64,000 nucleotides of DNA, taken from an uncultured Actinomycetes bacterium (GTDB lineage Bacteria > Actinomycetota > Thermoleophilia > Solirubrobacterales > Solirubrobacteraceae). This document shows positions 1,459-55,919 of the stretch, piece after piece (positions within the stretch are counted from its first letter, which is position 1; each line of letters starts with the position of its first letter). The notes beneath the pieces were generated by a model. That model ran no database searches and was not told where the DNA came from. It worked only from the letters and a program-made list of their open reading frames with translations. A program made the position numbers and the translations under genes. The DNA lies in assembly GCA_963795505.1 (NCBI GenBank), contig CAWCIB010000002.1, positions 7,480 through 71,479 of the forward strand, in the 5' to 3' direction.

Positions 1459-1623
1459 GCCGCGACCATATCTGAGCCGATCGACCCCCGTTCTGCTTTG
1501 CGCTAGCGACGAGCATCGCGAGCGAGCTCGCGGCCGTCCGCGACGCTGTTGGCTAGCGACGCCGCCTAGGTACTGCCGCCGGCCGCGCGGCCACGCACCT
1601 GGACGCGGCCGCGCGATCTCGCC

Positions 1624-2238
1624 CTAGCCGTACAACTCGATGAAGAACGCAAGCGGCGCGGGACTGCCGCTGGTATTGACCGTTTCCACCGAGGCCTGGG
1701 TATTCGCCGGACACGCGCCTACAGCTTGGGGCACGAACAGGCCCTCCCCGGGCGTCAGGCCCCCGAGGTCGGGCGTTACCTGGGCGCCCGTGGGCGTGAA
1801 CGGGAGCCCGCTGAAGCAATAGATGTTGCTAGAGCCACCGACGACGGTAACCGAGCCCACATTCTTGGAGTCCGCCTGATTGATCACCCCCGTCGTGCTG
1901 ACCCGCGCGAATGCGACGGGCTGGGCACTCCCGGCCGTGGCTGCGCTTGCCGCGCTGGCGGCACTCCCCGCGCTCGTGGCGTACGTTGCGCTTGCCGCGC
2001 TGCCGGCACTCGTCGCGCTCGTGGCATGCGTTGCGTTGACCGCATTGGTGGCGTTCGCGATCGTCGCGTTCTTGTTGAGCTTCTTCGTCGTCACCGCACC
2101 GTTCTTTAACCGCTTTGTCCCGACGCTGTTCGTCGGGAGCTTGAACGCCGCATATCCGGTGCCGCCCATCGCGATCAGCAGTGCGATGGTCGCAATGATC
2201 AGCGCCGGGCTGGGTCGCCGGGGCCTGAACCTGGTCAT
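1624..2238 (-). CDS. Exported protein with A-x-x tripeptide low-complexity stalk
   Basis: AGGAGG upstream of ATG 2238; signal-like RRPSPALIIATIALLIAMGGTGYAA; repeat ATNAVNATHATSATSAGSAAS... Confidence 0.7.
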   Translation of the reverse strand: MTRFRPRRPSPALIIATIALLIAMGGTGYAAFKLPTNSVGTKRLKNGAVTTKKLNKNATIANATNAVNATHATSATSAGSAASATYATSAGSAASAASAATAGSAQPVAFARVSTTGVINQADSKNVGSVTVVGGSSNIYCFSGLPFTPTGAQVTPDLGGLTPGEGLFVPQAVGACPANTQASVETVNTSGSPAPLAFFIELYG

Positions 2239-2659
2239 CGTGGTCCTCCTGTTGTTTGAGTCTGCTCGACGCGCCTGCACCCCCTAAATGATGATTCAAC
2301 CATCTAGTCGGGCTATCCGCTCAGGGTCAAGACGACAGCGGCCAAGACTCGCGAGGAGCGATACCCGCCGCGATGAACCACCCCGGGTCACAGCCCGGCG
2401 GCGGTTGCGAGACCGTCTTGCTCACGCCACCGTACTTCGCGCTGTTCCATCCGAATGCCGGGATCGCGCGGAAACCAGAAGCGAACGTCGGTCCGGTTAC
2501 AGTGCCCGTCTGATCGAAAGGTAGCTATCGCCAGAGAGGCGGGCCATGTTGCTAATGCGGGTGATGGCAATCGCGCGCGAGGCCACACGAAAAAAGTCAC
2601 AACTTCGAGGCTAGCTTTCAGATAGGGTCGGTGGATGGACCACAACAATGGAGGCGGCG

Positions 2660-2920
2660 ATGCATGCGGTGCTCGTGAATGTAAAGCTCTCGGATAACCC
2701 CGACCCCACGATTCTGCGCGAGCAGGTCGTGCCGCGGGTCAAGGAGCTTCCCGGCTTTGTGGCCGGCTATTGGACCCGAGGCGACGGGGTGGGACGATCG
2801 ATGGTCGTGTTTGATTCAGAGGAGAACGCGCAGGCCGCGTCCGACCTAGTGCCGTCGCTGATTCCTTCTGGAACCACCGTCGAGAGCAATGAGGTGAGCG
2901 AGGTAGTCGCACAGGCTTAG
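2660..2920 (+). CDS. Small dimeric alpha-beta barrel (ABM-like) hypothetical protein
   Basis: GGAGG before ATG 2660; VVPRVKELPGFVAGYW...GRSMVVFDSEENAQAA pattern. Confidence 0.7.
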   Translation: MHAVLVNVKLSDNPDPTILREQVVPRVKELPGFVAGYWTRGDGVGRSMVVFDSEENAQAASDLVPSLIPSGTTVESNEVSEVVAQA

Positions 2921-3082
2921 CGACGAGCAGTCGTGCTGGCCGCCCCCGTGGTCATCTCTGACAGATGCCCTGAAGCAACCCGCTGTCGTAATTGATCGAC
3001 GACCAGCACTCTGGAGATGTGTCTGGCTGGCGAATGCGTCGCCAACCGAGAGCGATCCGCTCGGAATGCTGACGCCTCCTGT

Positions 3083-3115
3083 CACGCGATAGGAGGCGGC
3101 GGGACATGCCAGCGC
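3083..3115 (+). repeat. 33-bp direct repeat, copy 1 (partner 4785-4817)
   Basis: cacgcgataggaggcggcgggac is identical in both copies (23 bp), followed by atgccagcgc here versus ttgctagcgc. Confidence 0.85.
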
Positions 3116-3232
3116 TGGCGAGTGCCTTCGTCGCAAAGCACGCGTCCGAGCGGAGCGCCTTCAAGCGATGAAGGCGAGCGCGCGGCTTGCTGTCGCGCTC
3201 TGCAGCAGCGAGTCGGGTTGCCGGGTGTGGTG

Positions 3233-4099
3233 TCAGTGTCCGTAGTCGGTGGTGACGGGACCGAGCTTGGCCAGGTCGGGATAGTGGTCTGAGGTCCCGA
3301 AGTCCTCGGTCTGTCCAGTCTTGGCGTTGAGGATGACCGTGATCACCGAATTGTGGATTGTGTGTGAGCCCGCTGGGCTGGACTCACGCCTGCTGTATGA
3401 GCCGAACACGCCGGTGGAGCTCCATTTGAAGTGGCCGTGAATGGCGATCAGATAAGCCCAGCTCCAATCGAAGATGAGATCCGGGGAGGCGATCAAGTTG
3501 GCTTCAAATCGCGTCCCCTCAGCATGCTGGATCAAACTCGGATGCGGGTCGCCTCCGCCCGCAATCGCGCTCATCTCGATCCGCCTGATCTGCCGCTCAG
3601 ACAGGTGCGGAGCAGGTGCGGGACGGAATCGAAGAACCCGGAGCTCGTCTCTCATCAACCGGTAGTTGTGCTTGATGCTGGCCGTACGCCAGTTATTCGG
3701 CAGGACCTTGTAAGCCATCGTGATCTGGTAGGTCCCGGGCTGAAGGTCGTCGTACAGGATCAGCGACCAATAGTCGTCTGGGGGGTTCAGGATTACCGAC
3801 GAGTTCGTGAGCGAGCAGGGCACCTTGATTTCGTGAGTCCTGGTGATGGTCTTCCACCCATCAGCCTGACGCAGTTGGAGGAGAAAGCAGGACGAGATCA
3901 GGAGATCCCGGGAGGCCGGCTTGACGATCTTTACCTGAACGCTCTGACCAGCCCGAAGAGTGTGAGAGGGCAGGCGCAGATGCACAGGCGGCGATTGCCC
4001 GGTGCTGGTGGTCGGCCAGGCGGTCGCGGTCGCCGGGGCCACCAACGCCAACGCGCCCAACACGCCCAAACGCCCTCTCCACCTCATCTCCAACAGCAT
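3233..4099 (-). CDS. Hypothetical exported protein (start 4087 or 4099)
   Basis: Signal-like MRWRGRLGVLGALALVAPATATA followed by a long open frame; the upstream part of track ORF 3233..4318 overlaps the YfhO fragment and is probably not coding. Confidence 0.6.
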   Translation of the reverse strand: MLLEMRWRGRLGVLGALALVAPATATAWPTTSTGQSPPVHLRLPSHTLRAGQSVQVKIVKPASRDLLISSCFLLQLRQADGWKTITRTHEIKVPCSLTNSSVILNPPDDYWSLILYDDLQPGTYQITMAYKVLPNNWRTASIKHNYRLMRDELRVLRFRPAPAPHLSERQIRRIEMSAIAGGGDPHPSLIQHAEGTRFEANLIASPDLIFDWSWAYLIAIHGHFKWSSTGVFGSYSRRESSPAGSHTIHNSVITVILNAKTGQTEDFGTSDHYPDLAKLGPVTTDYGH

Positions 4100-4201
4100 A
4101 TGTTTCGGTGCTCCTGTTGCCAAGGCCCTGACGGCCACCTCGGTGATCAGAAGCGCTCTCGCCACGGTAGACACCCGACGCTCGAGTTCAACGGAACGCA
4201 C

Positions 4202-4576
4202 ATGCCCCCGGTCATCGAGACATCGGCACCCTCCCCCCTCAACCGTCGCGCTCGCATAACCACCGCCCGGGTGATCGACAACGGCTCGAACTCCGTCACG
4301 ATCAACGCTGTCGCCCAACAGCCTGGCTATCTGATTCTCGACGATTCCGCCTATCCAGGTTGGAGCACCTACCTAGACGGCCGATCCGTCGATTGGAAAC
4401 CAGCCAACGAGAACTTCCGCGCTGTCGCGCTACCAGCCGGCAGACACGTCGTGCGCTTCCGCTACCGGCCGACGTCCATACTGCTCGGCGCAGTCATCTC
4501 AACGGTCTCCGCGCTCGTGCTCCTAATGCTCGCCGCCGTAGGTATAAGGCGGTCGCACTTCCGTCGCGCGCGCTGA
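4202..4576 (+). pseudogene. Isolated C-terminal domain of a YfhO-family membrane protein
   Basis: GYLILDDSAYPGWSTYLDG...ANENFRAVALPAGRHVVRFRYRP plus a terminal TM helix is the typical YfhO C-terminus; the multi-TM N-terminal part is absent. Confidence 0.7.
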
Positions 4577-4784
4577 ACCGCTCCACACAATCGCGCGAAC
4601 CAGGCTGACATCCCGAAGTGTCGTGCTCTATTGAGCCCGCGCGCCGCAAGGCAAACACGAGAATGACCCAAAGCGGAACGCTCTCGGCGCATGCGTCGAC
4701 CGTCATTTCTGCGAGCTCTAGTCCGCGACCTGCCGAATCGCATGGGCCCGGCGCCCGCGCACTCGGCTCGCCGGCGCATGCCCG

Positions 4785-4817
4785 CACGCGATAGGAGGCG
4801 GCGGGACTTGCTAGCGC
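4785..4817 (+). repeat. 33-bp direct repeat, copy 2 (partner 3083-3115)
   Basis: 31 of 33 positions identical to copy 1. Confidence 0.85.
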
Positions 4818-4890
4818 GGGCGGGGCGGACTCCCGGGCCAGACGACGGTAGGCAGCACCCAGGCTCCAGCCGACGCCCTAATATCGCCAG

Positions 4891-5271
4891 ATGGCAGAGC
4901 ACCGATTTGATCTAGCCGCGTCGTCGCTGCGTGCCGACGCGTCGGACTCGCAGGCGCTGGCTGAGGCGCTCGCGGCAAAGCTAGGCGACGCCCTTCCGGA
5001 TCAGACGAGAACGCGACGCCAGGCCGCGAGGTTCCTGTCTAGGGAAAAGCGCCTAGAGCGCGTCGAGGTGCAGCTCGGTGACGAGACGTTCGTGCTGTCT
5101 CTGGCGGGGGAGACAGCGGAGACGACGCTAGAGAAGACGGTACGAGGAGTCGTCATCAAACGCCAGCAAGTGCCGCTCGATGCGTGGCTGGACGCGCTGA
5201 GCGAAGCGCTCGGTGCTGAAGCTGAGCGGTCAGAGGCCGCGCGCGTGTCGCTTGAACGGCTTCTCGGCTGA
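4891..5271 (+). CDS. Conserved actinobacterial hypothetical protein
   Basis: Coding-like ORF DLAASSLRADASD...KTVRGVVIK...LDAWL...SEAARVSLERLL; GC3-rich codons. Confidence 0.7.
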   Translation: MAEHRFDLAASSLRADASDSQALAEALAAKLGDALPDQTRTRRQAARFLSREKRLERVEVQLGDETFVLSLAGETAETTLEKTVRGVVIKRQQVPLDAWLDALSEALGAEAERSEAARVSLERLLG

Positions 5272-5296
5272 GCTCTTCGCCAGCGTTGGCGATCCG

Positions 5297-6121
5297 TTAG
5301 TCGTTGATGTCGAGGACCGGCATGATGTCCGGCAGCTTCTGATCTGACTCGGCGTGCTCGTTCGGCACTACGGCCGTGCCGATTGCGAAGAACTCGATGA
5401 CGTGGCTGCCCCAGCCGTGGTTGTTCTGGTGGAGCTTCACCTCCACGATTCCTAGGACATCGTCGCCGATCTCCTCGGCCTCTTTCTGCATGCGCTCCAT
5501 CGCCAGCTCACGCGCGTCATACAGAGCCTGGGTGTACTGCTCGAGCTCGACGTTCTGACCTGTCTGACGAAGCGATTGCATCATCCCTCGATGAGCGACG
5601 TGATACACGCAATTGCCCATGACCATGCCTACCGGGCGCTTACCGGTCTGCATCAGCGTCCAAAACGCCTGGCCACTTAGATCGGATGTGAACGGTCGCC
5701 CGTTGGGCGCGCGGTGGACCTTGCCGCCCTTGTGCTTGACAGCGGTGCCGATCGCGATGAACTCCGCCATGTCCGCGCCCCACTCGTAGCGTCCGATGTC
5801 CAGCCGGACTCCGACTATGCCGTCGGCCCCGAGTTGGTCGGCTTCTTCCTCCATGCGCGTCATGGCGAGCTCGCGGGCGGAGTACATCGCTTGGGTGAGA
5901 ACCCCCATCTCCTGGCTCGCCTTCCAGTTGGCTGCCTGAAAGCCGATGTGGTAGATGCTGGAGCCGACCACAAGCCCCACGGGCTCAAAGTCGGCCTTCT
6001 CCACGCACAGGTACTCGTTCACGGAGAGGTCGGAGGTGAACAGCCCACGGGCGTTCATCTCTAGACGCTCACTGGCGTGTGCGGCGAGGCCTTCGGTACT
6101 TGTCGGGTCGTATGTCGGCAT
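5297..6121 (-). CDS. YbjQ/UPF0145 (putative heavy-metal-binding) protein with two domains
   Basis: Two repeats of PVG.V.G...Y..RELAM.RM..EA...G.DG..GV...F.AIGTAV. Confidence 0.85.
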   Translation of the reverse strand: MPTYDPTSTEGLAAHASERLEMNARGLFTSDLSVNEYLCVEKADFEPVGLVVGSSIYHIGFQAANWKASQEMGVLTQAMYSARELAMTRMEEEADQLGADGIVGVRLDIGRYEWGADMAEFIAIGTAVKHKGGKVHRAPNGRPFTSDLSGQAFWTLMQTGKRPVGMVMGNCVYHVAHRGMMQSLRQTGQNVELEQYTQALYDARELAMERMQKEAEEIGDDVLGIVEVKLHQNNHGWGSHVIEFFAIGTAVVPNEHAESDQKLPDIMPVLDIND

Positions 6122-6148
6122 CAGGGGCTCTCCTGAAGGGTTCGTGGA

Positions 6149-7087
6149 CTAGGCACCAACGTTGATCGACATCGCTGGCATCCCCAGCGGGGCCGGATGA
6201 GGCTCATGAGCGCCGAGTCGAATCGCGGTTCCCAGCACGTGCATGGAGACGATGAAGAAGTGCTGCGCGAAACCGATGCTCTCGTACTCGTGGTGGGCGA
6301 TGTCGTGGGTAAGCGTCGAGATGACCATGTCGTTCGCACCCGCCTGGCGCGCCTGACGCGTCACCTCCTCCATCGCGAGATGGCGAGCCGCGTAGACACC
6401 TTCGGTGACCTCGGTCATCTCCTGGTTACCCCACCAGGAGCGCATCATCTGATTGGCCTGCATGCTGAGCGCCACGGCCACCACTGAGGTATGGCCGATA
6501 ACGCTCAGGGTCTCGGCTCCGATGCGGCGCAGCTTGTCGACGTCCTGAGCGGAGAGCGCGCACATCCGCGGCCCGGGACTGTCGCTCCGGGCAAGCGTGG
6601 TCTCGCGTATGGCGGTGCCGAATACCACGTATTCGACGGTTCCTGGTTCGCCGAGAAAGCTGTTAGTCGTCATCTCGATACCGATCACGGCGTCCGCGCC
6701 GGCGAATTCCGCCTCCTGCCGCAGACGGTCAAACGAACGCTCGCGCGACAGATTCCACGGCAGCGCGAACGACGGCATCTCACGGATCCCTCCCCCGTAA
6801 GAGGACCAGCCGTAGTTCTGCCAGCCGTGCTGCACCACCGAGGAGCCCATGATCTGCGCGATCGGCCTCAGACCGGAGGCATGCGCAATCGCATACTCCT
6901 TGGTGCTCAGATCGCTGCTGAAAACCGGCGAGCTCCGCCTGGCAAGCGTCTTCAGACGTTGTTCCGCTCCGAGCGGAATTCCGCCGCGCTGGATGCGGTC
7001 AAGATCAACTGCGGCCGCCTCGCGCTCTTCTGCGCTGAGCGGTGTCGGACGTTTCCCGAATAGTGGCAACAGCTGATGTTCCCACAT
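6149..7087 (-). CDS. YbjQ/UPF0145 protein with two domains (paralog)
   Basis: FSSDLS motif shared with neighbour; RLRQEAEFAGADAVIG...VFGTAI; ARHLAMEEVTRQARQAGA...VLGTAI. Confidence 0.8.
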   Translation of the reverse strand: MWEHQLLPLFGKRPTPLSAEEREAAAVDLDRIQRGGIPLGAEQRLKTLARRSSPVFSSDLSTKEYAIAHASGLRPIAQIMGSSVVQHGWQNYGWSSYGGGIREMPSFALPWNLSRERSFDRLRQEAEFAGADAVIGIEMTTNSFLGEPGTVEYVVFGTAIRETTLARSDSPGPRMCALSAQDVDKLRRIGAETLSVIGHTSVVAVALSMQANQMMRSWWGNQEMTEVTEGVYAARHLAMEEVTRQARQAGANDMVISTLTHDIAHHEYESIGFAQHFFIVSMHVLGTAIRLGAHEPHPAPLGMPAMSINVGA

Positions 7088-7513
7088 CCCGGCCACCGCT
7101 CAGCTAAATGCGCCACCGCTCCCGTCTGGCGTCACGCGGGTTCCACTGTCGCTTGCCCGATCGCATTGCGTGAGAGCCGGTCTCACCTAGGCCGTTCGCC
7201 TCTTGCGGTACAGGGTGGCCGCATGATCCCGTCGCGTTGCGAGCGTGATTTTGTCGTCGGTTTGCGGGGGCCCAAGGACCGCGACTGCTCGTCGATGCCG
7301 CTCCCGGCAGCCCTTCTATGCGGAGGCATGCGTCGTATTGACACATGGATCCGCAAAGAACGGCGGACCCGGCGGGCCGAGCGCTCCACCCGCCGCGCGC
7401 GTCTCCCTTACCTCACCCGGCCCGGCGCTCGCAACCAACGGATAGCACAAGCCGCATGTGTCATTAGCTGCGAGGATTGTGCGCCCGAAGCAATCGCCCA
7501 AAGGAGGCTCCCT

Positions 7514-7933
7514 ATGGCTGAGTTCCCGGCGCCGAAGGACGGACTACTTCTGACGCATTTCATCGTTTCGAACGACGTCGCGCGCTCGCGCCGGTTCTAC
7601 ACCGAGGTGCTCGGCGGCGAGCTTGTGATGGAGGGCGAGCCAACGATCGTTCAGCTCGCCAACGGCTGGGTGATCATCAACGTCGGCGGTGGCCCGACCG
7701 ACGACAAGCCGGCGGTGACCCTCGAGGCGCCCGGCGATCCGAACCTGGTGAGCAGCTTCCTCAACATCCGCGTGTCGGATATCGCGAAGGTCTACGAGGA
7801 TTGGGGTGCGCGCGGCGCCGAGTTTCTCACTGAGCCGAAGGATCACGGCCGCGAGATTCGCTGCTATCTGCGTGACCCGGACGGGCACCTGATCGAGGTG
7901 GGCCAGGCAACGGGAATCCTCGATAGCCCGTGA
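7514..7933 (+). CDS. VOC / glyoxalase-bleomycin resistance family protein
   Basis: AAGGAGG RBS; VSNDVARSRRFYTEVLG...CYLRDPDGHLIEVGQ. Confidence 0.9.
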   Translation: MAEFPAPKDGLLLTHFIVSNDVARSRRFYTEVLGGELVMEGEPTIVQLANGWVIINVGGGPTDDKPAVTLEAPGDPNLVSSFLNIRVSDIAKVYEDWGARGAEFLTEPKDHGREIRCYLRDPDGHLIEVGQATGILDSP

Positions 7934-8079
7934 CGCCTGGAATCACGCGAAAGCGAGCGTCGCGTTAGAGCGGGGTCCGTTCCTGGTCGATTCGCGCTGC
8001 GTCTCGCGACCTTGCTTGGGACGAGCGAGGCGGCATATAGTCGCCATGCCAATCGTGGTACGACCGCTAGGAGGCCTTG

Positions 8080-8376
8080 ATGACTGAAGACGCAGCGAGA
8101 GTCGCCCCGAACGTCTACACGGTGCTATTCGAGAACGAGCGAGTACGACTGCTCGAGGCGCGCCTCAAGCCGGGTGATAGCTCGGCGCTTCACTCGCATC
8201 CGGACTATCTCATCTACAACCTGGAGGACGGCAAGGTCAAGTTTGGCGGCCCTTCTGGGGAAGGCGACGAAGTCGAGCTCAAGGCAGGCGACGTGATGTG
8301 GCGCGATGCGGAAGAACACACCGCCGAGGGCATTGGGTCGACGGACGTTCACGCACTCCTGTTCGAGCTGAAGTAG
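8080..8376 (+). CDS. Cupin domain protein
   Basis: AGGAGG RBS; LFENERVRLLE..LKPG....LHSHP...ELKAGDVMW...H. Confidence 0.85.
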   Translation: MTEDAARVAPNVYTVLFENERVRLLEARLKPGDSSALHSHPDYLIYNLEDGKVKFGGPSGEGDEVELKAGDVMWRDAEEHTAEGIGSTDVHALLFELK

Positions 8377-8499
8377 CCCTATATCGCCTCGGCGCAAGAC
8401 CCGATCCTCGCAATCTCGGGTCTCGCCCAATGCTCACATCCGGACGAAGGCGATCGTGCACTCCGGGCCATGATCGGCGCGAGCTGGCGCGATGCTTTC

Positions 8500-8571
8500 G
8501 TCGCCAACTCAGTCGTCACGCGCGGGAGCGACGGAACGCGCAAAGCAATCGTCCGGACGGCCGCAGTCGCG
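8500..8571 (-). repeat. ~72-bp repeat, inverted partner of 10373-10443
   Basis: Reverse complement aligns to 10373-10443 with about 11 differences in 72 columns (hand alignment). Confidence 0.85.
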
Positions 8572-8789
8572 CTGATGAGTTTGGGCGAGATGGCGCTGCT
8601 GTGGCAGGGCCGCCAGACCTCCGGGCGCCCGGGCGCAGGCGCGGCATCGAGCTCACGGGGGGACGATGACCGGGGTTGGGAGCGCGGCGGCGACATCGAG
8701 TACCAGAGCCCGGAGACGGTCAACGTGCGGCCGATCCGGCCGCTCATGACAGCACAGGCAAACCGCGCTCGCGCCGGTCGGGAAGCGCC

Positions 8790-9935
8790 CTAGCGGTATC
8801 CGCGCCGCCGCAGGACATGCAGGGCGGGAGCAGGATCCGTCCACGAGAAGATCGCGTGGCTGGTGCGACGCCGGGGCCGCAGTCCGCGCACAGCCGCGGA
8901 GCGCTGGCCGCCGCGCCATGCCGCCCACAGCGATCGCGCGTCGTCGAACTCTGAGCGAAACCTGCGGCCGAGCCGTGGGACGGCCGGTCGCACCGGGCGG
9001 CCGAGGAGCAGGTCGACCCACGCCGCCGGCATGTTCGCCCCGGCCTCGACCTGGACGGCCAGGGAGTTCCACGCGCGAGGGTTGAAGTCGATCAGGAACC
9101 GGCCGCTTGGAGCATCGAGGAACTGGAGGTTAAACAGGCCCGACCAGCAAGCCTCCGCGAGCATCTCGCGGCAGCAGCGTTCGAGTTCGGGATCGGACCG
9201 GACGATGCGCCCGTAGGACAGGACGCCGCAGTCGCGTGGCCAGGTTCGGTCGCCCGTCTTCTGCGCGACGGCGACGACCTCGCCGTTCCACGCCAGCCCG
9301 TCGACCGTGCGCTGGTCGCCGACGACATAGGGCTGCACGAGGCCGTGGCCGCAGGGCAGCGCGGCGAGCGCCGAGGCGAGGCCGGGCCCGTCGGGCACGC
9401 TCAGGACCCGCCTCTGCTCAATGGTGCCGTCCGCCTGAGGGAGGTGCGAGCTGAGGGGCTTGACAACCGCCGGGAACCCGCCGTCCCAGCGGTCTGCGCT
9501 CTCGGCGGTGAGCATGCGCGTCGGCGGCGTGCGCAGACCTCCGGCGGCGGCGAGCTCGGTGAGCGAGCCCTTGGCAAGGACCCGGTCGACGACCGCGGCC
9601 GACGGGCAGCCGGCCACGACCGAGCCGGGAAGCTGGTCACGGTGATGGGCGAGCGCCCGCAGCGCAGGCTCGGTCCCGGGTAGCACGGTGGCGCCATGGC
9701 GCACCGCTACGGCCCCGACGTCCCGCACGAACGCCGCCGGGTCGCCGCTCGGGTCGTGCACGACCTCCACGGCGTGCGCCGCGCGGGAGATAGCGCCAAG
9801 AGCATCCGGGCGCGTGACCGCGGCGATCGGCGCGTCGCCGCCCGCGTGGACCGCCCGCAGAAGCGCAAGACCCGCCGGGAACTCGCTGCCGGTGACGACG
9901 ACCGGCACACGCCGGCCATGCGGGTGAAGGCTCAT
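8790..9935 (-). CDS. ATP-grasp domain protein (D-aspartate ligase / carboxylate-amine ligase-like)
   Basis: FPAVVKP, LVQPYVVG, WSGLFNLQF...FLIDFNPRAW ATP-grasp motifs. Confidence 0.85.
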   Translation of the reverse strand: MSLHPHGRRVPVVVTGSEFPAGLALLRAVHAGGDAPIAAVTRPDALGAISRAAHAVEVVHDPSGDPAAFVRDVGAVAVRHGATVLPGTEPALRALAHHRDQLPGSVVAGCPSAAVVDRVLAKGSLTELAAAGGLRTPPTRMLTAESADRWDGGFPAVVKPLSSHLPQADGTIEQRRVLSVPDGPGLASALAALPCGHGLVQPYVVGDQRTVDGLAWNGEVVAVAQKTGDRTWPRDCGVLSYGRIVRSDPELERCCREMLAEACWSGLFNLQFLDAPSGRFLIDFNPRAWNSLAVQVEAGANMPAAWVDLLLGRPVRPAVPRLGRRFRSEFDDARSLWAAWRGGQRSAAVRGLRPRRRTSHAIFSWTDPAPALHVLRRRGYR

Positions 9936-10372
9936 CGTTCGCGCAGCAGGTTGGAGTGGTCAGCCTCCATGTCGCGATGCTCATCGTTGCAGAGGTTTGC
10001 CGCGGTCTGCGCCCGATCGCTAGCCGACGATCACGTCCGCGTGCAACAGAGCGGTTTGCGGACGATACAAGCGTCGCGTCCCCGTCCCGGTCCCAGAGCT
10101 GCTGCAAATTCGCCTTGGCTTGGGTTTCCCGGGCCGGACCGTCCTCCCCAGCTCCTGAACGGGACAGTCGTCGAGCCTCACCGGACGAACCACGGTCTAT
10201 CCCGCGCCGAAGACGGAGCTCCTCGACCGCTTCCACAAGTTCCTCGCTCATGAACGACCGGCCGCGCGCCTCGCTTGCAGCCGAGAAGAATGCTACGAGG
10301 ATGCGAAGCGATGGCGCCGCGGCAGGGTGACAGCAGCGCGCGCTCACGCCCCCAATCGCTCAAACTCATCCG

Positions 10373-10443
10373 CGCGGCTGCGGCTGTCCGGACGATCGCT
10401 TTGCTCGTTCCGCCGCGCCGGGTCTGACGACCGAGTTGGCGAC
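10373..10443 (+). repeat. ~71-bp repeat, inverted partner of 8500-8571
   Basis: cgcggctgcggctgtccggacgatcgctttgctcgttccg...tgacgaccgagttggcgac. Confidence 0.85.
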
Positions 10444-10757
10444 CGTCCGGTCGCCCGGGATCACGCCCGCCCGCGGCGCCGGCTCACACTTCCGAGTTCG
10501 TCGCGTTGCACCACTCTGACCGTGATGGCGGGAGAGTGTTGAGTCTCGATCAAAGCGGCGCTCTGGGTGCCCCCGTTTTTGCGCAGGCCGCGGCGAGCGC
10601 GTCCGAGACCTGATCGTGGCTGGCGCCATTCGGGCTAGGCCGATCACCTAATCCGGATGATGCGCGTATCCGGCTCGGCCCTAGAGTCCGCGCGATGGTA
10701 CGCGGGAGCCGTCGTGCGCGACGAGATAGATGAGGCGAATTCAGAGAGGAGCAGGCG

Positions 10758-12116
10758 ATGACGAGTTTGAATACCTCGAAGGCGAGCGATTCACGATCCG
10801 AGCAGGAGCCTCAGGAGATTGCCGTCGAGGCCTACGTCTACCTGTATCCGCTCGTGATGATGGACACCACCCGTCAGCAAATGACGAACATCGAGGCGGG
10901 CGAGCGGCCGGGTTACGGGCCGATGAACACGTTCAACCACATGCGTGCGTTCCCGCCGCCGGAGTTCAAGAGCGTCCCGTGGCCCAACTTCGACACGCTG
11001 TACTCGCTGGCCTGGTTGGACCTAACCAGCGAGCCGGTGATCGTGTCCGCACCGGATACCGGTGAGCGCTACTACCTGCTGCCGCTGCAGGACATGTGGA
11101 CGGATGTGTTCGCGGTGCCCGGCAAGCGCGCCAGCGGCACCGAGGCCGGTCATTTCGCCGTCGTGCCCGCGGGCTGGCAGGGAGAGCTGCCCGCGGATGT
11201 GAGCCGCATCAATGCCCCCACGCCACATGTCTGGATCATCGGCCGCACGCAGACCAACGGCCCGGAAGACTACGACGCCGTTCACACCGTGCAGGACGGC
11301 TACGCCGTCACACCACTCTCGCGCTGGGGCGGGGAGCCGCAGCCGGTCCAGGTGGCGATTGATCCGGCGGTCGACATGACTACTCCGCCGGTCAAGCAGG
11401 TCAATGGCATGCCTGCACTGGCCTACTTTGCCCGCGCGGCCGAGTTGATGCGGCAGCATCCGCCGCACATCACGGACTGGTCCATCTTGGCGCGCATGAA
11501 GCGCATCGGCATCGTGGCTGGCCAGAGTCTTGACAGCGAGACACTCGGACCAGAGATCAAACAAGCGCTCGAAGAGGCCGCGACAACCGGCCTGCAAATG
11601 ATGCAGGCGAAAGTGCCGAAGCTTGCTCCGCTCGTCAATGGCTGGCAGGTGGCCGCTGAAACGATGGGCGTCTACGGCAACTACTACCTGAAACGCGCCA
11701 CGCTCGCGATGATCGGTCTGGGCTCAAACCCGCCGGAAGACGCGATCTACCCGCTGGCATTTGCGGACGGCGACGGAAAGCCACTCAACGGCCAGGACGA
11801 CTACGGCCTCCACTTCGACAAGCAGGAGCTGCCGCCGGTAAACGCCTTCTGGTCGGTCACCATCTACGACCGAGACGGCTTTCAGGTCGCTAACGCGCTC
11901 AACCGCTGCGCGCTCGGCGACCGCGACCCCCTGCAATACAACGCCGACGGCTCGCTCGACCTCGTCATTCAGCACGAAAACCCCGGACCCGAGCACGAGC
12001 CGAACTGGCTGCCAGCGCCACCTGGCCCGATGGCCCTCTTCCTACGCCTCTACGAGCCAAGACCGGAGGTGCTGGACGGACGCTGGAAGCCCCCCGCGGT
12101 GCGGCGGGTGACCTAA
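10758..12116 (+). CDS. DUF1254/DUF1214 domain protein
   Basis: AYVYLYPLV, PNFDTLYSLAWLDL, NAFWSVTIYD, NWLPAP signatures. Confidence 0.9.
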   Translation: MTSLNTSKASDSRSEQEPQEIAVEAYVYLYPLVMMDTTRQQMTNIEAGERPGYGPMNTFNHMRAFPPPEFKSVPWPNFDTLYSLAWLDLTSEPVIVSAPDTGERYYLLPLQDMWTDVFAVPGKRASGTEAGHFAVVPAGWQGELPADVSRINAPTPHVWIIGRTQTNGPEDYDAVHTVQDGYAVTPLSRWGGEPQPVQVAIDPAVDMTTPPVKQVNGMPALAYFARAAELMRQHPPHITDWSILARMKRIGIVAGQSLDSETLGPEIKQALEEAATTGLQMMQAKVPKLAPLVNGWQVAAETMGVYGNYYLKRATLAMIGLGSNPPEDAIYPLAFADGDGKPLNGQDDYGLHFDKQELPPVNAFWSVTIYDRDGFQVANALNRCALGDRDPLQYNADGSLDLVIQHENPGPEHEPNWLPAPPGPMALFLRLYEPRPEVLDGRWKPPAVRRVT

Positions 12117-12120
12117 GGCA

Positions 12121-12300
12121 TGCCTCGCCGGAGGAACGCCGAGCCCGGCTTGCGCTTCGGGCTACATCCAGCCGTCGGCACGGACTAACGACGGCTTCTC
12201 CAACCCGCCGAATCCGGCACTCCTCCGGACGATCGCATTCGCGATTCCGCCGCCTCGCCGCCTGCGATCGCTTCGGCGACGGAGCAGCTTAGCCGAACCT
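12121..12300 (+). repeat. Intergenic degenerate repeat, core GATCGCATTCG-N22/23-CGATC(G/C)CTT
   Basis: Core at 12231 and 12265; same two motifs at 33-34 nt offset at 12846/12879 and 14593/14627. Confidence 0.75.
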
Positions 12301-12408
12301 GTTTTGGCGGTCGGTACCGGAGCCTGTTGATGGCTCAGGGTTCCTTTATTTGCTATCGGGGCCGGCGCGATATTAGGGTTGGCCTAAGCAAACTCCGGAG
12401 GAGGTCAC

Positions 12409-12717
12409 ATGAAGTACTTCGTTAGCGCGACACCGGGCCCCATGCCGCCGGCACCTGAGCAGTTCGACGCGGCCATGAGCTGGCTTGAAGGTAAGGTCGA
12501 CGACGGGACGTTTGACTGCATCTATGGGTTCATCGAGGGCGGCGGCTTCAGCATCGCCAACGCTAATTCGCATCGCGACGTGCTCGAGCTGATGGCGGCT
12601 TATCCCCTGTTCGGGCTGGTCACGTGGGACGTACGCCCCTTGCTGGAGTTCAAGGAGGGGATCGACACGGTGCGAGCAAAGCTTGCTGAGGCGCAAGCCG
12701 CAATGGCTGGCCGGTGA
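12409..12717 (+). CDS. Small hypothetical protein, muconolactone isomerase / DUF3303-like barrel
   Basis: GGAGGAGG RBS; GGGFSIANANSHRDVLELMAAYPLFGLVTWDVRPL pattern. Confidence 0.7.
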   Translation: MKYFVSATPGPMPPAPEQFDAAMSWLEGKVDDGTFDCIYGFIEGGGFSIANANSHRDVLELMAAYPLFGLVTWDVRPLLEFKEGIDTVRAKLAEAQAAMAGR

Positions 12718-12839
12718 GGTCCTCCTTTGTCGCGGAGGCCTGAGGCGAACCCAGAGTGCGGGCTGAGGGCCCCTGGCACCGATTAAGGCGGCGGCGGTTG
12801 TGAGTACGCGCTCGGTCCGCGCGGGCACCGAAGATTCAA

Positions 12840-12900
12840 CACCGGGATCGCATTCGTCTACCCCCGCCATCCAGCGGGCGATCCCTTGGACGACCCGGCG
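12840..12900 (+). repeat. Intergenic degenerate repeat copy
   Basis: gatcgcattcgtc at 12846 and cgatcccttggacgac at 12879. Confidence 0.7.
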
Positions 12901-13003
12901 CTTGTTGGGGCGGCGTCGCCCTGCGGCGACGGTTTCGGCGGCGGACGGGCCCGCACAGTGATGGCGGCGTGGCTGGCACAGCGACAACGGGGCTGCCGGC
13001 TGC

Positions 13004-13418
13004 TCAGCTGGTCTCGCGGAGCTTGGTCGCGAACTGTGCGGGTGTGAGGATCGGCAGGTCGTCGTTCAGGACGAGCAGGTCTTTGTCGCCGGTGATCAGG
13101 TACGCGCGGCGGTCGATCGCGAGTGCGAGGAGGTAGTCGTCGTCGGGGTCGCGGGAGCCGACGGGCGGTGGGCTTGCTGGATCCTCGGCGATGCTGCCAT
13201 GAGTCGCGGACCCAGTTGGTGAAGGCGGCGGCTTTCTCGGGAGTGATCCGCTTGCGCAGCTTGGGATAGGCGAGCGTTCGCTTGAGCTCCGCGAGGAGCA
13301 ACTCAGAGACGACAAGCTCGAACTGGCCGTCGCGGCTAGCACGCAGGATCTCGGCCGACGACCCCTTGGCGGACAGCACCCCTGAGATCAGGACGTTGAC
13401 ATCAACGACCGCGCGCAC
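13004..13418 (-). pseudogene. PIN-family putative toxin, frameshifted by one extra base near 13202
   Basis: MRAVVDVNVLISG...WVRD in one frame and HGSIAEDP...RDPDDDYLLALA...LITGDKDLL in the next; removing one base (GAC-T-CAT) gives a 137-aa PIN protein. Confidence 0.85.
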
Positions 13419-13653
13419 CAGATGACCGTCGGCGAGGCCTCGTTGCGTGTTGCGCCTCCACGGCGAGCTCGGACGCCTTGGCCTCCGACATCGTCGCATT
13501 TGCCCACAACTCGTCGAGAACGTCGAGCTTGAGATCGCGGCGCAGAGATTCCTCGATCACCGCGCTGTCCGAGACGCCGGTACGCGCTGCGCGAATCTTG
13601 ACCCACTTCAGAACGTCTTCGTCGATCGTGAGCGTCGTACGTACCTTGGACAC
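13402..13653 (-). CDS. Ribbon-helix-helix (CopG-like) antitoxin
   Basis: VRTTLTIDEDVLKWVKIRAARTG.SDSAVIEESLRRDL; overlaps toxin start; TAAGAT 6 nt before GTG. Confidence 0.85.
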   Translation of the reverse strand: MSKVRTTLTIDEDVLKWVKIRAARTGVSDSAVIEESLRRDLKLDVLDELWANATMSEAKASELAVEAQHATRPRRRSSGARGR

Positions 13654-13945
13654 AAGCGCATCTTACCATCACGATGCGGAGATGCGACGATGAAACCTGT
13701 CAATCGTCAGAGATCGGGCGAACCTCCCGACGGCTTTCGCCGTTTGACGCGTGGCCGTCGCGCGGCCGCTTCTGCGACTGCGCACTCGAGCGCTACAGAG
13801 AGTTGCCCATGGCGACGAGCAGGTTCGCGCTGGCTCACGAATCGCGGCGTGCTCTCGCCTCAGCACGGGCCTACCCGGCGCACGCCCAGCTGACGAGGCG
13901 GTCCAGCAGGGCCCACTCTCTGCCGGGACCTTCTCGAGGTGCCTC

Positions 13946-14221
13946 TCAGCCCTTGATCACGTTGTGTACCCGGGCCACCATCGGCTCGCCTGGATCGGCG
14001 CCAAGTCCGGTCATTATCGGAACGAGCGTCGCCCCGAACGCCTCGAATGCCTCCTGCGACTCCCAGATGTCGAAAACCTGGATCTCGCCATTGGTCTCGA
14101 GCGCGACGTGGTACGAGCGTCCTTCAGGCGCGCCCGCACCCGCAGCCTCGAGCTTGCTAATGGCTTCGTCGTACTTGTCCTGCGTGAACCCGCTTGGGGT
14201 GAAGTAGAACCCGAGTGCCAT
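13946..14221 (-). CDS. Small ABM-like hypothetical protein
   Basis: YHVALETNGEIQVFDIWESQEAFEAFGATLVP pattern. Confidence 0.8.
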   Translation of the reverse strand: MALGFYFTPSGFTQDKYDEAISKLEAAGAGAPEGRSYHVALETNGEIQVFDIWESQEAFEAFGATLVPIMTGLGADPGEPMVARVHNVIKG

Positions 14222-14584
14222 TCGATCCCGATCCCTTCCGCACGACTCGCGCGGTCGCTTGTCATGAGTTGCGCGCCGACTCTATCGCGCCGCGGCGGAC
14301 CTCATTCGAAACCTCATCGCCATCGATCGCAGCAGCAATCACGTGATGTCTGGGCGACGAACGGGGCCCGGCCTCACTGGCCTTAGCTCGCAGCGTGGAC
14401 GTGCGGACACGATGCTCATAAAGGCATCTTCCGTCGCGTGAACCGCACGCCTGAACTGAGCTCGACACTGGTCGTATTGGTGCGGCGCACTCATGCGTTC
14501 GCGCCGGGGAAGACCTGCTCTTCGCCCGCGTCGGGCCTCGGCGGTTGTCGCTCCGAAGACCTGCCTTGCGCGGAAAGCCCGAGT

Positions 14585-14645
14585 GCGCTGACGATCGCAT
14601 TCGTCCACAACGCAGCGAACAGCTCACGATCCCTTCGGCGACATT
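14585..14645 (+). repeat. Intergenic degenerate repeat copy
   Basis: gacgatcgcattcg 14590-14603 is identical to 12228-12241; cttcggcgac follows 43 nt downstream in both. Confidence 0.8.
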
Positions 14646-14666
14646 GCGGGCGCCAGCCGGAAGCGT

Positions 14667-15188
14667 CTAGCTGCCGAAGAGCTGGAACGGCCAGGGGCCG
14701 TCGAGCACGATCCGTCCTGGCTGAGTCGGGTGCGCACTCGTCTCTAGCGTGATGAGGATCTTGCGGTAGCGCCCCAGGTGCGCGGGTAGCCGGCGCACCA
14801 CGATCACGACCGTCTTCTTCACCGGTGTCGGAAGTGCTCGGATCGACTTGACCAGGTGCGCGTGGCCCGGGCCGCTCCATAGCCACACGGCATAGACCTT
14901 CGGGGCACGGACGGGATTCAGACCCTGAGCGCCGATCTCCAGCAGGTAGCGGTGACGCGCACGCACCACCTCCCCAATTCCAAGCGCTGAGTGCTTCGCC
15001 CCGGGTGACGACAGGTTGATCTGTTGTATCGGCCGCGCCCCTGGAAACGGCGAAGGCACACAGCCGCAGCTCGGAGCCATCGCGCTGGCCGCAGCCGATG
15101 ATCCCGCAAAAGCGACCGCGAGCACAATCGCCCAGGCCACCGAAGAGAACCGCCCGGGCTGGTGGGCCGGCCGGTCGCTATCCCACAC
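14667..15188 (-). CDS. Exported protein with anti-sigma-K (RskA) C-terminal-like domain (start uncertain)
   Basis: Signal-like AWAIVLAVAFAGSSAAASA; YAVWLW...YRKILITLETSAHPTQPGRIVLDG resembles the RskA extracytoplasmic domain. Confidence 0.55.
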   Translation of the reverse strand: MWDSDRPAHQPGRFSSVAWAIVLAVAFAGSSAAASAMAPSCGCVPSPFPGARPIQQINLSSPGAKHSALGIGEVVRARHRYLLEIGAQGLNPVRAPKVYAVWLWSGPGHAHLVKSIRALPTPVKKTVVIVVRRLPAHLGRYRKILITLETSAHPTQPGRIVLDGPWPFQLFGS

Positions 15189-15380: not shown

Positions 15381-15717
15381 TGGGGTGTCCTTCCGGTTCC
15401 TCTCGTCGCTCCGCGCGTAACGCAGTGGGCGAGAACAGCCCGCGCGGGTAACGGATAGGGCGTCTCCACCGGGCCGGTGAGCTAACGCCTTTAGGAATAC
15501 GGCACCGGCCCTGCAGTCAAAACCAGTGGCCCACGCCTCTCGCCTTGTGGCGCACACTGCGCCGTCGGTGGCATCCCGGCTTGGGGTGAGAATCCTGGCC
15601 GCAGGGCCAGCTCGTCAACGACTCTACTCCGATTACACCGAAGCTCAAGTTTGCCCGGGTAGGCCGGCGCCGGCGCACGCGGCGCTGAACCACCGACTGC
15701 ACCGGCCGGGCACGGAG

Positions 15718-16119
15718 CTACACGGTCGCCGAGTAGGTGTTCTTCGGGAACGCGCACGTCCCCGTGGCGCCCTTTAACGTTCCGGAGAAGGCGCCGCTGA
15801 CATGCTTCCCGGAGAACTTCCCGGAGAGCTTCACGACCGAGACGCCCGTGTGGATCGAGCCCTTGAACTTGCCGTGGTTGATCTTCAAGCTGGTCGAGAC
15901 GCCGGACTCGAGGTCGAGGCCGGCGCAGTTCGCCCCCGCGAACAGGCTGACCTTAGTGACCTTGCCGTTCTTGACCGTCAGGGTGAACGGATGCGTCGCG
16001 ATGACCCCGCTGACATGCAGCGTGCTCTTGCCGCTGTAGGTTCCGTTTGACGCCGCAGTTGCAGATGCCGCGAGCCCGAGGGCCGCGATCGCAGCTAGCG
16101 CAGCGGTCTTGCGAATCAT
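15718..16119 (-). CDS. Secreted Lys/Gly/Ser-rich beta-strand hypothetical protein
   Basis: GGAG RBS; signal peptide MIRKTAALAAIAALGLAASATA; two Cys. Confidence 0.75.
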   Translation of the reverse strand: MIRKTAALAAIAALGLAASATAASNGTYSGKSTLHVSGVIATHPFTLTVKNGKVTKVSLFAGANCAGLDLESGVSTSLKINHGKFKGSIHTGVSVVKLSGKFSGKHVSGAFSGTLKGATGTCAFPKNTYSATV

Positions 16120-55036: not shown

Positions 55037-55101
55037 ACCAACCCTGACCGACAGCGCCGGCGGAGGTATGCACCTTCGCCGGCGCCGATCGCGGACGAAG
55101 G

Positions 55102-55114
55102 CGATGGCGAGACC
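55102..55114 (-). repeat. 13-bp copy of the tRNA-Phe 3' end (att-like)
   Basis: cgatggcgagacc is identical to 55844-55856. Confidence 0.55.
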
Positions 55115-55341
55115 GAGGCGATTCGCGGATCGCCTCGCGAGCGTTCGCCTTCGCCCACGCATCTTCGCCTGCGTCGAGCTCTCCTCCGGGAGCTCGGGCT
55201 TCCAGGTACGCGTCAAGCGCGGCGTTGGCTCGGACAAACCGTGAGCGCGCACGATCGAGATCGAGCCCGCCCCAGTGCACCGATGACTTGCGCGACAAAC
55301 CGTGGTCTTTGCTTGTACTGACCACGTCCACGGAGGAACCC

Positions 55342-55846: not shown

Positions 55847-55919
55847 TGGCGAGACCCGGAATCGAACCGGGGACACCACGATTTTCAGTCGTGTGCTCTA
55901 CCAACTGAGCTATCTCGCC
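55847..55919 (-). tRNA. tRNA-Phe (GAA), CCA not encoded
   Basis: GGCGAGATAGCTCAGTTGGTAGAGCACACGACTGAAAATCGTGGTGTCCCCGGTTCGATTCCGGGTCTCGCCA; full cloverleaf, anticodon loop CTGAAAA. Confidence 0.97.

Follow-up and report, generated by a model that had tools for sequence, protein, structure and literature searches.

An intergenic repeat linked to a small tyrosine recombinase in Solirubrobacterales, and its recombinase-less array in an uncultured member of the order

We analysed a stretch of 64,000 nucleotides (nt) from an uncultured Solirubrobacteraceae bacterium (contig CAWCIB010000002.1, positions 7,480 to 71,479; hereafter the window, with positions counted from its first letter), and in particular a family of intergenic repeats in its left part, which we call repeat E. 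On a Pfam scan, the left 15 kb of the window consist largely of lone small genes, and their G+C content is 0.61-0.67, against 0.67-0.71 elsewhere in the window. An earlier note, made from the sequence alone, had read positions 1490-14670 as an array of single-gene cassettes separated by degenerate repeats, which might be the sites of a cassette-capture system or a decayed family of miniature inverted-repeat transposable elements (MITEs). Its gene labels were broadly right by Pfam, except that the cupin and ABM matches fall below the Pfam cut-offs, and its statements that the genes lie on both strands and that the window has no recombinase were both confirmed.

The bipartite motif GATCGCATTCG-N22/23-CGATC(G/C)CTT was found exactly at 12231, 12846 and 14593, always on the (+) strand and with the conserved spacing already described, and 100 dinucleotide shuffles gave no match (3 exact matches vs 0 expected). 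A shared 14-mer and, 43 nt downstream, CTTCGGCGAC are indeed both identical in two copies. The pair reported at 8500/10373 exists too, but it is inverted and about 148 nt long rather than 72 bp: 8443-8588 matches 10356-10502 (73% identity over 148 nt, rising to 88% in a core of 64 nt), bracketing an ATP-grasp gene. Aligned with the three motif copies, the inverted pair shows common ends, namely GGAC-GATYGCWTT, then 24-26 nt, then CGAYnnnKTnGRCGAC. These are therefore five copies of one unit, repeat E (70-105 nt), with a mean column identity of 65%. A profile (nhmmer) built solely from copies of other genomes, with the window copies excluded, returned exactly five E copies from the 64-kb window (E-values from 6e-14 to 6e-7; next match 0.005), all of them in 8.49-14.66 kb and none in the remaining 58 kb. 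A chance origin of E is ruled out by the shuffles and by this profile, which is independent of the window.

The leftmost copy, L (8488-8570, (-) strand, E-value 2.7e-10), is of the long form defined below, with its box B at 8500-8516 and its box A at 8548-8560, and its likeness to copy R spans 8443-8625. Copy R, also of the long form (10374-10456, (+), E-value 2.5e-13, pattern match at 10394-10443), sits where the ATP-grasp operon and a DUF1254 gene diverge, in the spacer that separates them. Between the outward-facing ends of L and R lies the ATP-grasp gene (8790-9935, (-), Pfam ATPgrasp_Ter), with a possible open reading frame (ORF) of 77 aa directly upstream on the same strand (10021-10251, (-)); the latter has no Pfam match and could encode a partner or substrate peptide. 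The L and R arms were themselves considered as coding for precursor peptides of the ATP-grasp enzyme and rejected, as the reading frame is not kept. The DUF1254/DUF1214 gene (10758-12116, (+), Pfam) separates R from copy c1 (12217-12285, (+), exact bipartite motif, E-value 6e-14), which is followed by a DUF3303-like gene of 102 aa (12409-12717, (+); a homologue is named DUF3303 in a source). Copy c2 (12823-12906, (+), exact bipartite motif and nhmmer match) comes after it, 98 nt past the stop of a PIN gene and antisense to a toxin-antitoxin (TA) pair. The pair is formed by a frameshifted PIN toxin gene (13004-13418, (-), Pfam PIN_3, two overlapping frames) and an RHH (CopG-type) antitoxin gene (13402-13653, (-), Pfam RHH_1). 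Finally, copy c3 (14568-14655, (+), exact bipartite motif, E-value 1.6e-12) occupies a 446-nt spacer between an ABM-like gene of 91 aa (13946-14221, (-), weak Pfam ABM match below the cut-off) and, on the far side, a 173-aa gene with a weak RskA_C match. The four direct copies (R, c1, c2, and c3) mark off one- or two-gene units.

Weaker copies had also been suspected. Those near 8440 and 13700-13900 are at most degenerate fragments: a box-A-only fragment beside copy L (8437-8469, (-), E-value 0.17, matching GATCGCATTCG with one mismatch) and a possible degenerate sixth copy (13725-13788, (+), E-value 0.35, not significant alone). Those at 2440-2510 and 55091 lie outside the family and are attributable to chance, as is a 13-mer pair at 2921/7282, since 14 of 100 shuffles had at least two matches. 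Because the profile search found no E copy in the spacers of 1490-8400, the array spans only the right half (8.49-14.66 kb) of the region flagged earlier.

The consensus of 56 copies has a short form of ~65 nt and a long form of ~105 nt, in the order ..CGnCCGGCTGCCGCnGTCCGCAC-GATCGC(T/A)TT, ~24 variable nt, GCGATCGCGTTGGCGAC, and often another CGATC box. We name the two conserved ends box A, ..GAC-GATCGC(A/T)TT, and box B, (G/A)CGA(T/C)CnnKT(T/C)GGCGAC, after which the third CGATC box is frequent; between A and B there is weak symmetry only. The ends are conserved across many species, and the middle is variable even inside one genome. The copies are intergenic, stand in any orientation to their neighbours and at irregular distances from them, and carry no promoter-like (sigma-70-like) or terminator-like signal, so that E was rejected as a promoter or terminator. 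Since copy lengths differ by single nucleotides (1-2 nt), E is non-coding; moreover, the L and R arms translate differently. Single copies fold no better than shuffles (z from -2.1 to +1.7), and RNAalifold gave -0.4 kcal/mol on the consensus. The sole conceivable stem, between CGATCGC of box A and GCGATCG of box B, was no better than column shuffles (170/500), with uncompensated changes in 16 of the 56 copies and no covariation. No Rfam family matches any E copy. A structured RNA or a known RNA family was discarded on these three grounds (Rfam, consensus fold, covariation), and a HIP1-like octamer bias as the source of E was discarded too, GCGATCGC being only twofold enriched.

Outside the window, one degenerate-pattern scan of a species-representative genome collection matched at least 120 blocks. 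About 57 of these belong to Solirubrobacterales, Solirubrobacteraceae or generically labelled actinobacterial soil metagenome-assembled genomes (MAGs) and share one common consensus; the remaining listed blocks are scattered chance matches, largely in coding DNA of other phyla. With the E profile, soil-metagenome loci gathered via DUF1254 homologues (481 kb) gave no copy, nor did eight loci of close Solirubrobacteraceae relatives gathered via the DUF3303 gene (L121-128, ~52 kb non-redundant, including a thiG-purH core region), and 2.9 million viral contigs gave weak, pattern-forced matches only. On these scans, E appears to be specific to Solirubrobacterales and common in their soil MAGs. In the E-bearing blocks of 8 kb, two or three copies are common, mostly as element-gene-element, and the genes between copies are accessory (e.g., Schlafen/AlbA_2, GmrSD, RibD_C, ODP, hydrolases, and unknowns). 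Even scatter over the genome, which would have marked E as an ordinary repetitive extragenic palindromic (REP) sequence, was not found: neither the 58 kb of the window outside the array nor the ~52 kb of core-type loci of relatives contain a copy. Judged on genome pieces, E is clustered in flexible regions and is thus unlike an evenly spread REP. As a side observation, an identical E-bearing sequence was deposited under a "Myxococcaceae" MAG (L065) and a Solirubrobacterales MAG (L088); one of the two deposits is probably a binning error.

The TA pair beside c2 has the features of a type II, VapBC-like system (RHH_1 antitoxin and PIN_3 toxin, overlapping, in one operon), and its antitoxin has more than 1900 close homologues in soil data. 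The antitoxin is identical at 98% of amino acids in locus L209 and 95% in L210-219, and in these loci, as in the window, RHH and PIN are followed by an antisense E ~95 nt past the PIN stop. The nucleotide identity of this RHH-PIN-antisense E stretch between the window and L209/L210 is 85-91%, and the outer neighbours differ on both sides. In L209, RHH (10001-10252) and PIN (10236-10649) overlap, and PIN is intact, with 137 aa. The window PIN has one extra base near 13203 relative to the contigs of all four metagenome runs, which splits the gene into two frames; either the gene is a pseudogene or the base is an error of the (long-read) assembly.

In L209 and L210-219, the antitoxin gene divergently adjoins the gene of a small tyrosine recombinase. 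This gene is split in L210-219 by an inserted three-recombinase element, of which L209 keeps a remnant only. The inserted element (L210 734-4918, also in L211-219) is a trio of tyrosine recombinases of 402, 308 and 335 aa, of the recombinase-in-trio type, placed after ..HGKGD; the L209 remnant (9433-9669) is a 78-aa C-terminal piece of an element of this type. Reading through the split gene retrieves intact proteins of 235 aa, with up to 93% identity, and relatives number in the thousands in soil data. The 235-aa recombinase is a Phage_integrase-family protein that has the catalytic domain only and belongs to the Xer/integron-integrase/Fim group, below the cut-off of every curated family. Indeed, it scored 99 bits on the XerC model (cut-off 335), 62 and 49.5 bits on integron-integrase models (cut-offs 265 and 435), and 48 bits on the Fim-type invertase model (cut-off 222), of which it matches positions 10-187 of 198. 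The intact proteins retain the catalytic R, K, HxxR, H and Y and, as far as their sequence tells, look functional. No plasmid relative of the recombinase was found, and a phage or plasmid origin was rejected on this ground and because viral contigs gave only weak, pattern-forced E matches.

Of the 57 E-bearing blocks, 5 carry relatives of the small recombinase (55-90% identity), and in L100 the recombinase gene lies between two inverted E copies. The layout of the units was established on loci fetched via the recombinase protein, independently of E. L220 reads E(+), PIN-RHH, recombinase, E(-); L221 reads E(+), recombinase, OGG gene, E(-), plus a second E(+), recombinase; L222-224 read recombinase, E(-). 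L225-234 read E(+), PemK-type TA pair, recombinase, E(-), 81-aa gene, E(-), two genes, E(-), and L235-244 read E(+, weak), recombinase, CMD gene, E(-). In general, a unit consists of E(+), an optional TA pair, the recombinase, an optional small cargo gene, and E(-). One E precedes the recombinase gene by ~110-140 nt and shares its strand, and another follows it after ~60-130 nt, inverted; this orientation rule was found in every independent locus. Two unrelated TA families, RHH-PIN and PemK, fill the same slot between E and the recombinase. Furthermore, in L225/L229 three same-oriented E copies follow the recombinase, with small genes between them. The earlier note had asked whether such arrays sit near a tyrosine or serine recombinase, and in relatives E is tightly linked to a tyrosine recombinase, which is what a capture system would need.

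Seen against these units, c2 is matched in position and orientation in L209, L210-219 and L220, where it is the left end of the TA-recombinase unit. The window ceases to be homologous to L209, L210 and L220 at 13693-13708, which is 40-55 nt before the antitoxin gene starts. This is exactly where the recombinase gene should begin; the degenerate E-like stretch 13725-13788 lies there, and the ABM-like gene (13946-14221, (-)) occupies the slot of the relatives' recombinase gene.

Some homology boundaries fall at box A. L222 and L224 agree at 99.9% over at least 9 kb that begin 253 nt upstream of the recombinase and run rightwards; leftwards they are unrelated, and the break falls within a box A that is degenerate. 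The ~235-nt non-coding end of a truncated IS110-family transposase gene (Pfam DEDD_Tnp_IS110; IS, insertion sequence) abuts box A of two different E copies in L041 and L042. In the window, 12800-12845 at c2 resembles an IS110-family end, of which the last 30-45 nt are kept. Relatives of IS110 target REPs, transposon ends and attC sites, and E is likewise a target of an IS110 element. Box A homology breaks as proof of crossover were given up in part, as two of the three cases are IS110 insertions and only L222/L224 remains.

As to whether the enclosed genes behave as cassettes, RHH-PIN plus E recurs amid different outer neighbours, and so does a DUF7668 gene beside E (L081/L119). Soil strains related to the source show other neighbours beside ATP-grasp, TA and ABM in their contigs; relatives do not maintain the gene order around the enclosed genes, and conserved synteny had been named in the earlier note as a ground for refuting the cassette reading. 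Among 194 E-adjacent proteins, recurrence is almost confined to the recombinase, PIN and a few pairs. Public metagenome runs contained at most 11-20% of the window words, in contigs of ~2-4 depth that are fragments of related strains. The apparent joints 10417>12267, 12858>12260 and 10406>14627 were rejected as recombination, being other E family copies in metagenome contigs. A different arrangement was noticed in two near-identical Solirubrobacteraceae contigs: L127 has an insertion of 2.78 kb that L128 lacks, made up of three single genes (AOC-like, SnoaL, and polyketide cyclase). It is bounded and internally split by direct repeats of 53-100 nt that resemble a tRNA 3' end (..GGTTCGAATCC..; L127 11933-12034, 13269-13321 and 14715-14815; L128 11933-12033). 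It represents another type of small-gene array in the lineage, distinct from the first.

We favour, with a probability of roughly 0.55, the reading that the window array is the recombinase-less relic of a site-specific recombination hotspot, and neither an integron nor a product of chance. According to this reading, E would be the binding and recombination site of the 235-aa recombinase, with boxes A and B as putative binding sites and exchange near box A, and accessory DNA would be inserted, exchanged or inverted at the hotspot by site-specific recombination. The window would retain the left arm of a unit (c2-PIN-RHH, with PIN frameshifted) and four orphan E copies, its recombinase gene and right end having been replaced, and the array may still be acted on in trans by a recombinase copy elsewhere in the genome. 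That E is the site of the recombinase is the best-supported reading because E copies stand, inverted and in fixed places, on both sides of a gene whose product retains its catalytic residues. It is also supported by the interchangeable TA and cargo slots, the same-oriented runs of E, the clustering of E in accessory DNA, and the island boundary at box A. Of the cassette-capture idea, a genuine E family that separates accessory genes and a TA pair and is linked to a recombinase in relatives has stood; the excision or insertion of a gene plus its repeat was not observed.

Several points weigh against the hotspot reading. In the window, there is no tyrosine recombinase of the 235-aa or of any other tested kind, and none of the five copies forms a canonical E(+)...E(-) pair. 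In the relatives, some of the upstream E copies beside the recombinase are weak (E-values 0.002-0.03), the two ends of one unit differ in the middle, with no common core found, and no target duplications or common outer flanks were found around the E-recombinase-E units. The sequence of the relatives comes in pieces of 8-20 kb, and the E-bearing blocks were chosen for containing E. The box A break in homology between L209 and the window is explained by an IS110 insertion scar and is not evidence of exchange. DUF3303 homologues of 80-90% identity in three other contexts have no E, nor do DUF1254 homologues, the nearest of which are at most 73% identical to the window gene; co-mobility of gene and E was therefore rejected for both. 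Lastly, no circle, inversion or empty-site junction was observed in contigs of related strains, and the runs do not cover the source strain.

A further-reaching proposal, which we advance only tentatively, is that E and the 235-aa recombinase form a gene-module exchange system of Solirubrobacterales that was not described before. Modules of one or two genes (TA pairs, defence genes, and small enzymes) would enter, leave or flip orientation at E, the system would be equivalent in function to integrons or dif modules, and the window array would still be a substrate for a recombinase elsewhere in the genome.

The main rival explanation, possible but on the unlikely side in our view, takes E as a passive repeat similar to a REP or a MITE, selfish or structural, that piles up in the long spacers of flexible regions and is simply targeted by the recombinase unit and by IS110; the supposed cassettes would then be ordinary genes that happen to lie between repeats. 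The intergenic position of the copies in all orientations, without fixed distance to their neighbours, agrees with this, and so do the IS110-family element abutting box A in L041/L042 with the scar at c2, the occurrence of the enclosed genes elsewhere without E, and the lack of any observed recombination product. Conversely, E has no hairpin, unlike REPs, and its middle varies in one genome with no target duplication, unlike MITEs; a decayed MITE, as proposed in the earlier note, does not fit ends that are conserved across species with a middle that is variable within one genome and no target-site duplication seen. Moreover, E is strongly clustered rather than dispersed, every independent locus follows the orientation rule around the recombinase, and a target-pair model needs adjacent E(+)E(-) doublets that lack a recombinase, of which the E-bearing blocks showed none.

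We regard as improbable a true cassette system like integrons or the dif modules of Acinetobacter, in which a gene with one E would be excised as a circle and re-inserted at another E, and the window would be an array comparable to an attC cluster without integrase. It would account for the one- or two-gene units between R, c1, c2 and c3, for the three direct E copies that come after the recombinase in L225/L229 and alternate with single genes, for the recurrence of RHH-PIN+E and DUF7668+E with different outer neighbours, and for the fact that every enclosed gene has other neighbours in related strains. It fits poorly with irregular gene-to-E distances and genes on both strands, with DUF3303 and DUF1254 homologues that elsewhere have no E, and with recurrence restricted to the recombinase, PIN and a few pairs among the 194 E-adjacent proteins; no circle or empty-site junction was seen, and the metagenome joints are other family members. 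A cis-regulatory element common to many accessory genes (operator of a global regulator, promoter, or small RNA gene) is very improbable: the two or three conserved boxes at fixed spacing, each with CGATCG, are compatible with the binding of a dimeric protein, but E has no fixed position or orientation to gene starts, no sigma-70-like promoter or terminator, no Rfam match and no conserved RNA structure, and its paired inverted placement around one recombinase gene would be unexpected of an operator.

The rest of the window holds a few other features. In the left 15 kb, Pfam matches include a SnoaL_2 gene (1006-1458, (-)), a VOC/glyoxalase gene, a weak cupin match below the cut-off, and an adjacent pair of YbjQ_1-domain genes (5297-6121 and 6149-7096); four ORFs have no Pfam match. 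The YbjQ_1 genes have two matched stretches each, and in many cases metagenome contigs skip 70-430 nt inside them, which suggests repeat-length variation within these genes. The depth of soil-metagenome contigs rises to 200-390 at 15401-15950 and to 220-330 at 5500-6050, against less than 10 nearby, and because of this very high depth both segments are taken to be widely conserved across soils; Pfam matched none of the ORFs at 15.4-16.0 kb. A short imperfect tandem repeat (1925-2014, spacings of 9 and 36 nt) lies inside a 218-aa ORF without family match (1624-2280, (-)). The sole other repeat in 1490-8400 is a 61-nt direct repeat in two copies (3060-3120 and 4762-4822, 79% identity), which contains GATAGGAGGCGGCGGGAC followed by a start codon and brackets a 361-aa ORF without family match (3233-4318, (-)); it had no match in any fetched locus. 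Far from the array, a tRNA-Phe gene (55847-55919, (-)) is the only Rfam match in the window. Beside it, an 800-nt low-GC spacer contains a 97-nt near-palindrome (55077-55173, 74% self-complementary) that is GATCGC-rich and is not repeat E; part of it is 78% identical over 55 nt to the antitoxin gene region of L225.

Among soil actinobacteria, Solirubrobacterales rank with the most abundant although they are barely cultured, and to our knowledge next to nothing has been established about the construction of their flexible genome. As a repeat that occurs throughout the lineage and goes with a miniature tyrosine recombinase, E is a concrete, testable candidate for the assembly of accessory genes in this order. 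E marks hotspots of accessory, defence and TA genes and is parasitised by IS110, and the 235-aa recombinase with a well-defined site of ~70 nt would be a compact system for biochemical study. Our literature search returned nothing on such a repeat or recombinase in Solirubrobacterales. E and the small recombinase are probably an undescribed repeat family linked to a site-specific recombinase. The window itself would hold a relic only, yet it points to a widespread system.

Compared with known systems, the E system appears to be a member of none, and every test of integron membership was negative. Classical integrons are rare in Actinobacteria. As in integrons and in clusters of attC sites lacking an integron integrase (CALIN), short sites with conserved ends and a variable middle lie between small accessory genes and TA pairs, and a tyrosine recombinase is tied to the sites in relatives, with the window array being recombinase-less. 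The integron-likeness suggested earlier nevertheless did not hold, as there is no attC consensus, no hairpin and no IntI. In attC, RYYYAAC/GTTRRRY boxes form an imperfect inverted repeat that folds into a hairpin with extrahelical bases; the 56-copy consensus of E is without such boxes and without a selected hairpin, and its recombinase, of 235 aa without an N-terminal domain, reaches 62 bits against the integron-integrase cut-off of 265. Moreover, integron cassettes share one orientation, with attC at the 3' end of the ORF, whereas here the genes are on both strands, E is upstream, downstream or between divergent genes at irregular distances, and two inverted E copies flank the recombinase on both sides.

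Fim-type invertases, invertons and shufflons have in common with the E system a short tyrosine recombinase without core-binding domain and inverted sites that bracket a DNA segment, and the E recombinase matches the invertase model over its full length. However, its 48 bits are far under the cut-off of 222, the bracketed segment holds the recombinase with a TA pair or cargo rather than a promoter, and there are many orphan and direct E copies, with inversion not observed. As for MITEs, their copies are near-identical, whereas the five window copies have 65% mean column identity and weak A/B symmetry; no direct repeats flank the units, solo copies not having been examined exhaustively for target-site duplication. 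With the IS1111-attC and IS110 elements there is the likeness of a DEDD IS110-family transposase gene whose non-coding end stands against box A in two genomes, with a scar at c2, but here the element is a parasite of E and not E itself, and truncated copies only were found.

The closest parallels lie elsewhere. On Acinetobacter plasmids, dif modules hold one or two genes, often TA pairs, are bounded by Xer-type sites, and are shuffled between replicons (PMC6449649, PMC13141974), and one IS family specifically targets the pdif sites (PMC10132070). The E system resembles them in that its gene modules are often TA pairs and its sites are targeted by an IS, in this case IS110. It differs from them in its site, as pdif has 28 bp (11-6-11), alternates in orientation around the modules and uses the host XerCD, whereas E has 70-105 nt, with boxes ~36 nt apart, no evident 11-6-11 core, and its own miniature recombinase, which is Xer-like in the catalytic domain only. 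Furthermore, the E system is chromosomal and belongs to Solirubrobacterales, with no plasmid relative found. REPs, and the bacterial interspersed mosaic elements (BIMEs) they form, differ from E in being imperfect palindromes of 20-40 nt that are dispersed genome-wide, whereas E has no hairpin and is clustered. A REPtron, in turn, is like the E unit in joining a family of short intergenic repeats to a gene for the presumed acting enzyme, bracketed by two inverted copies; the enzyme is an HUH Y1 transposase (REP-associated tyrosine transposase, RAYT) there and a tyrosine recombinase here. By analogy, then, E would work most like the dif modules of Acinetobacter and integrase-less integron arrays, in a layout like that of a REPtron in which a tyrosine recombinase takes the place of RAYT.

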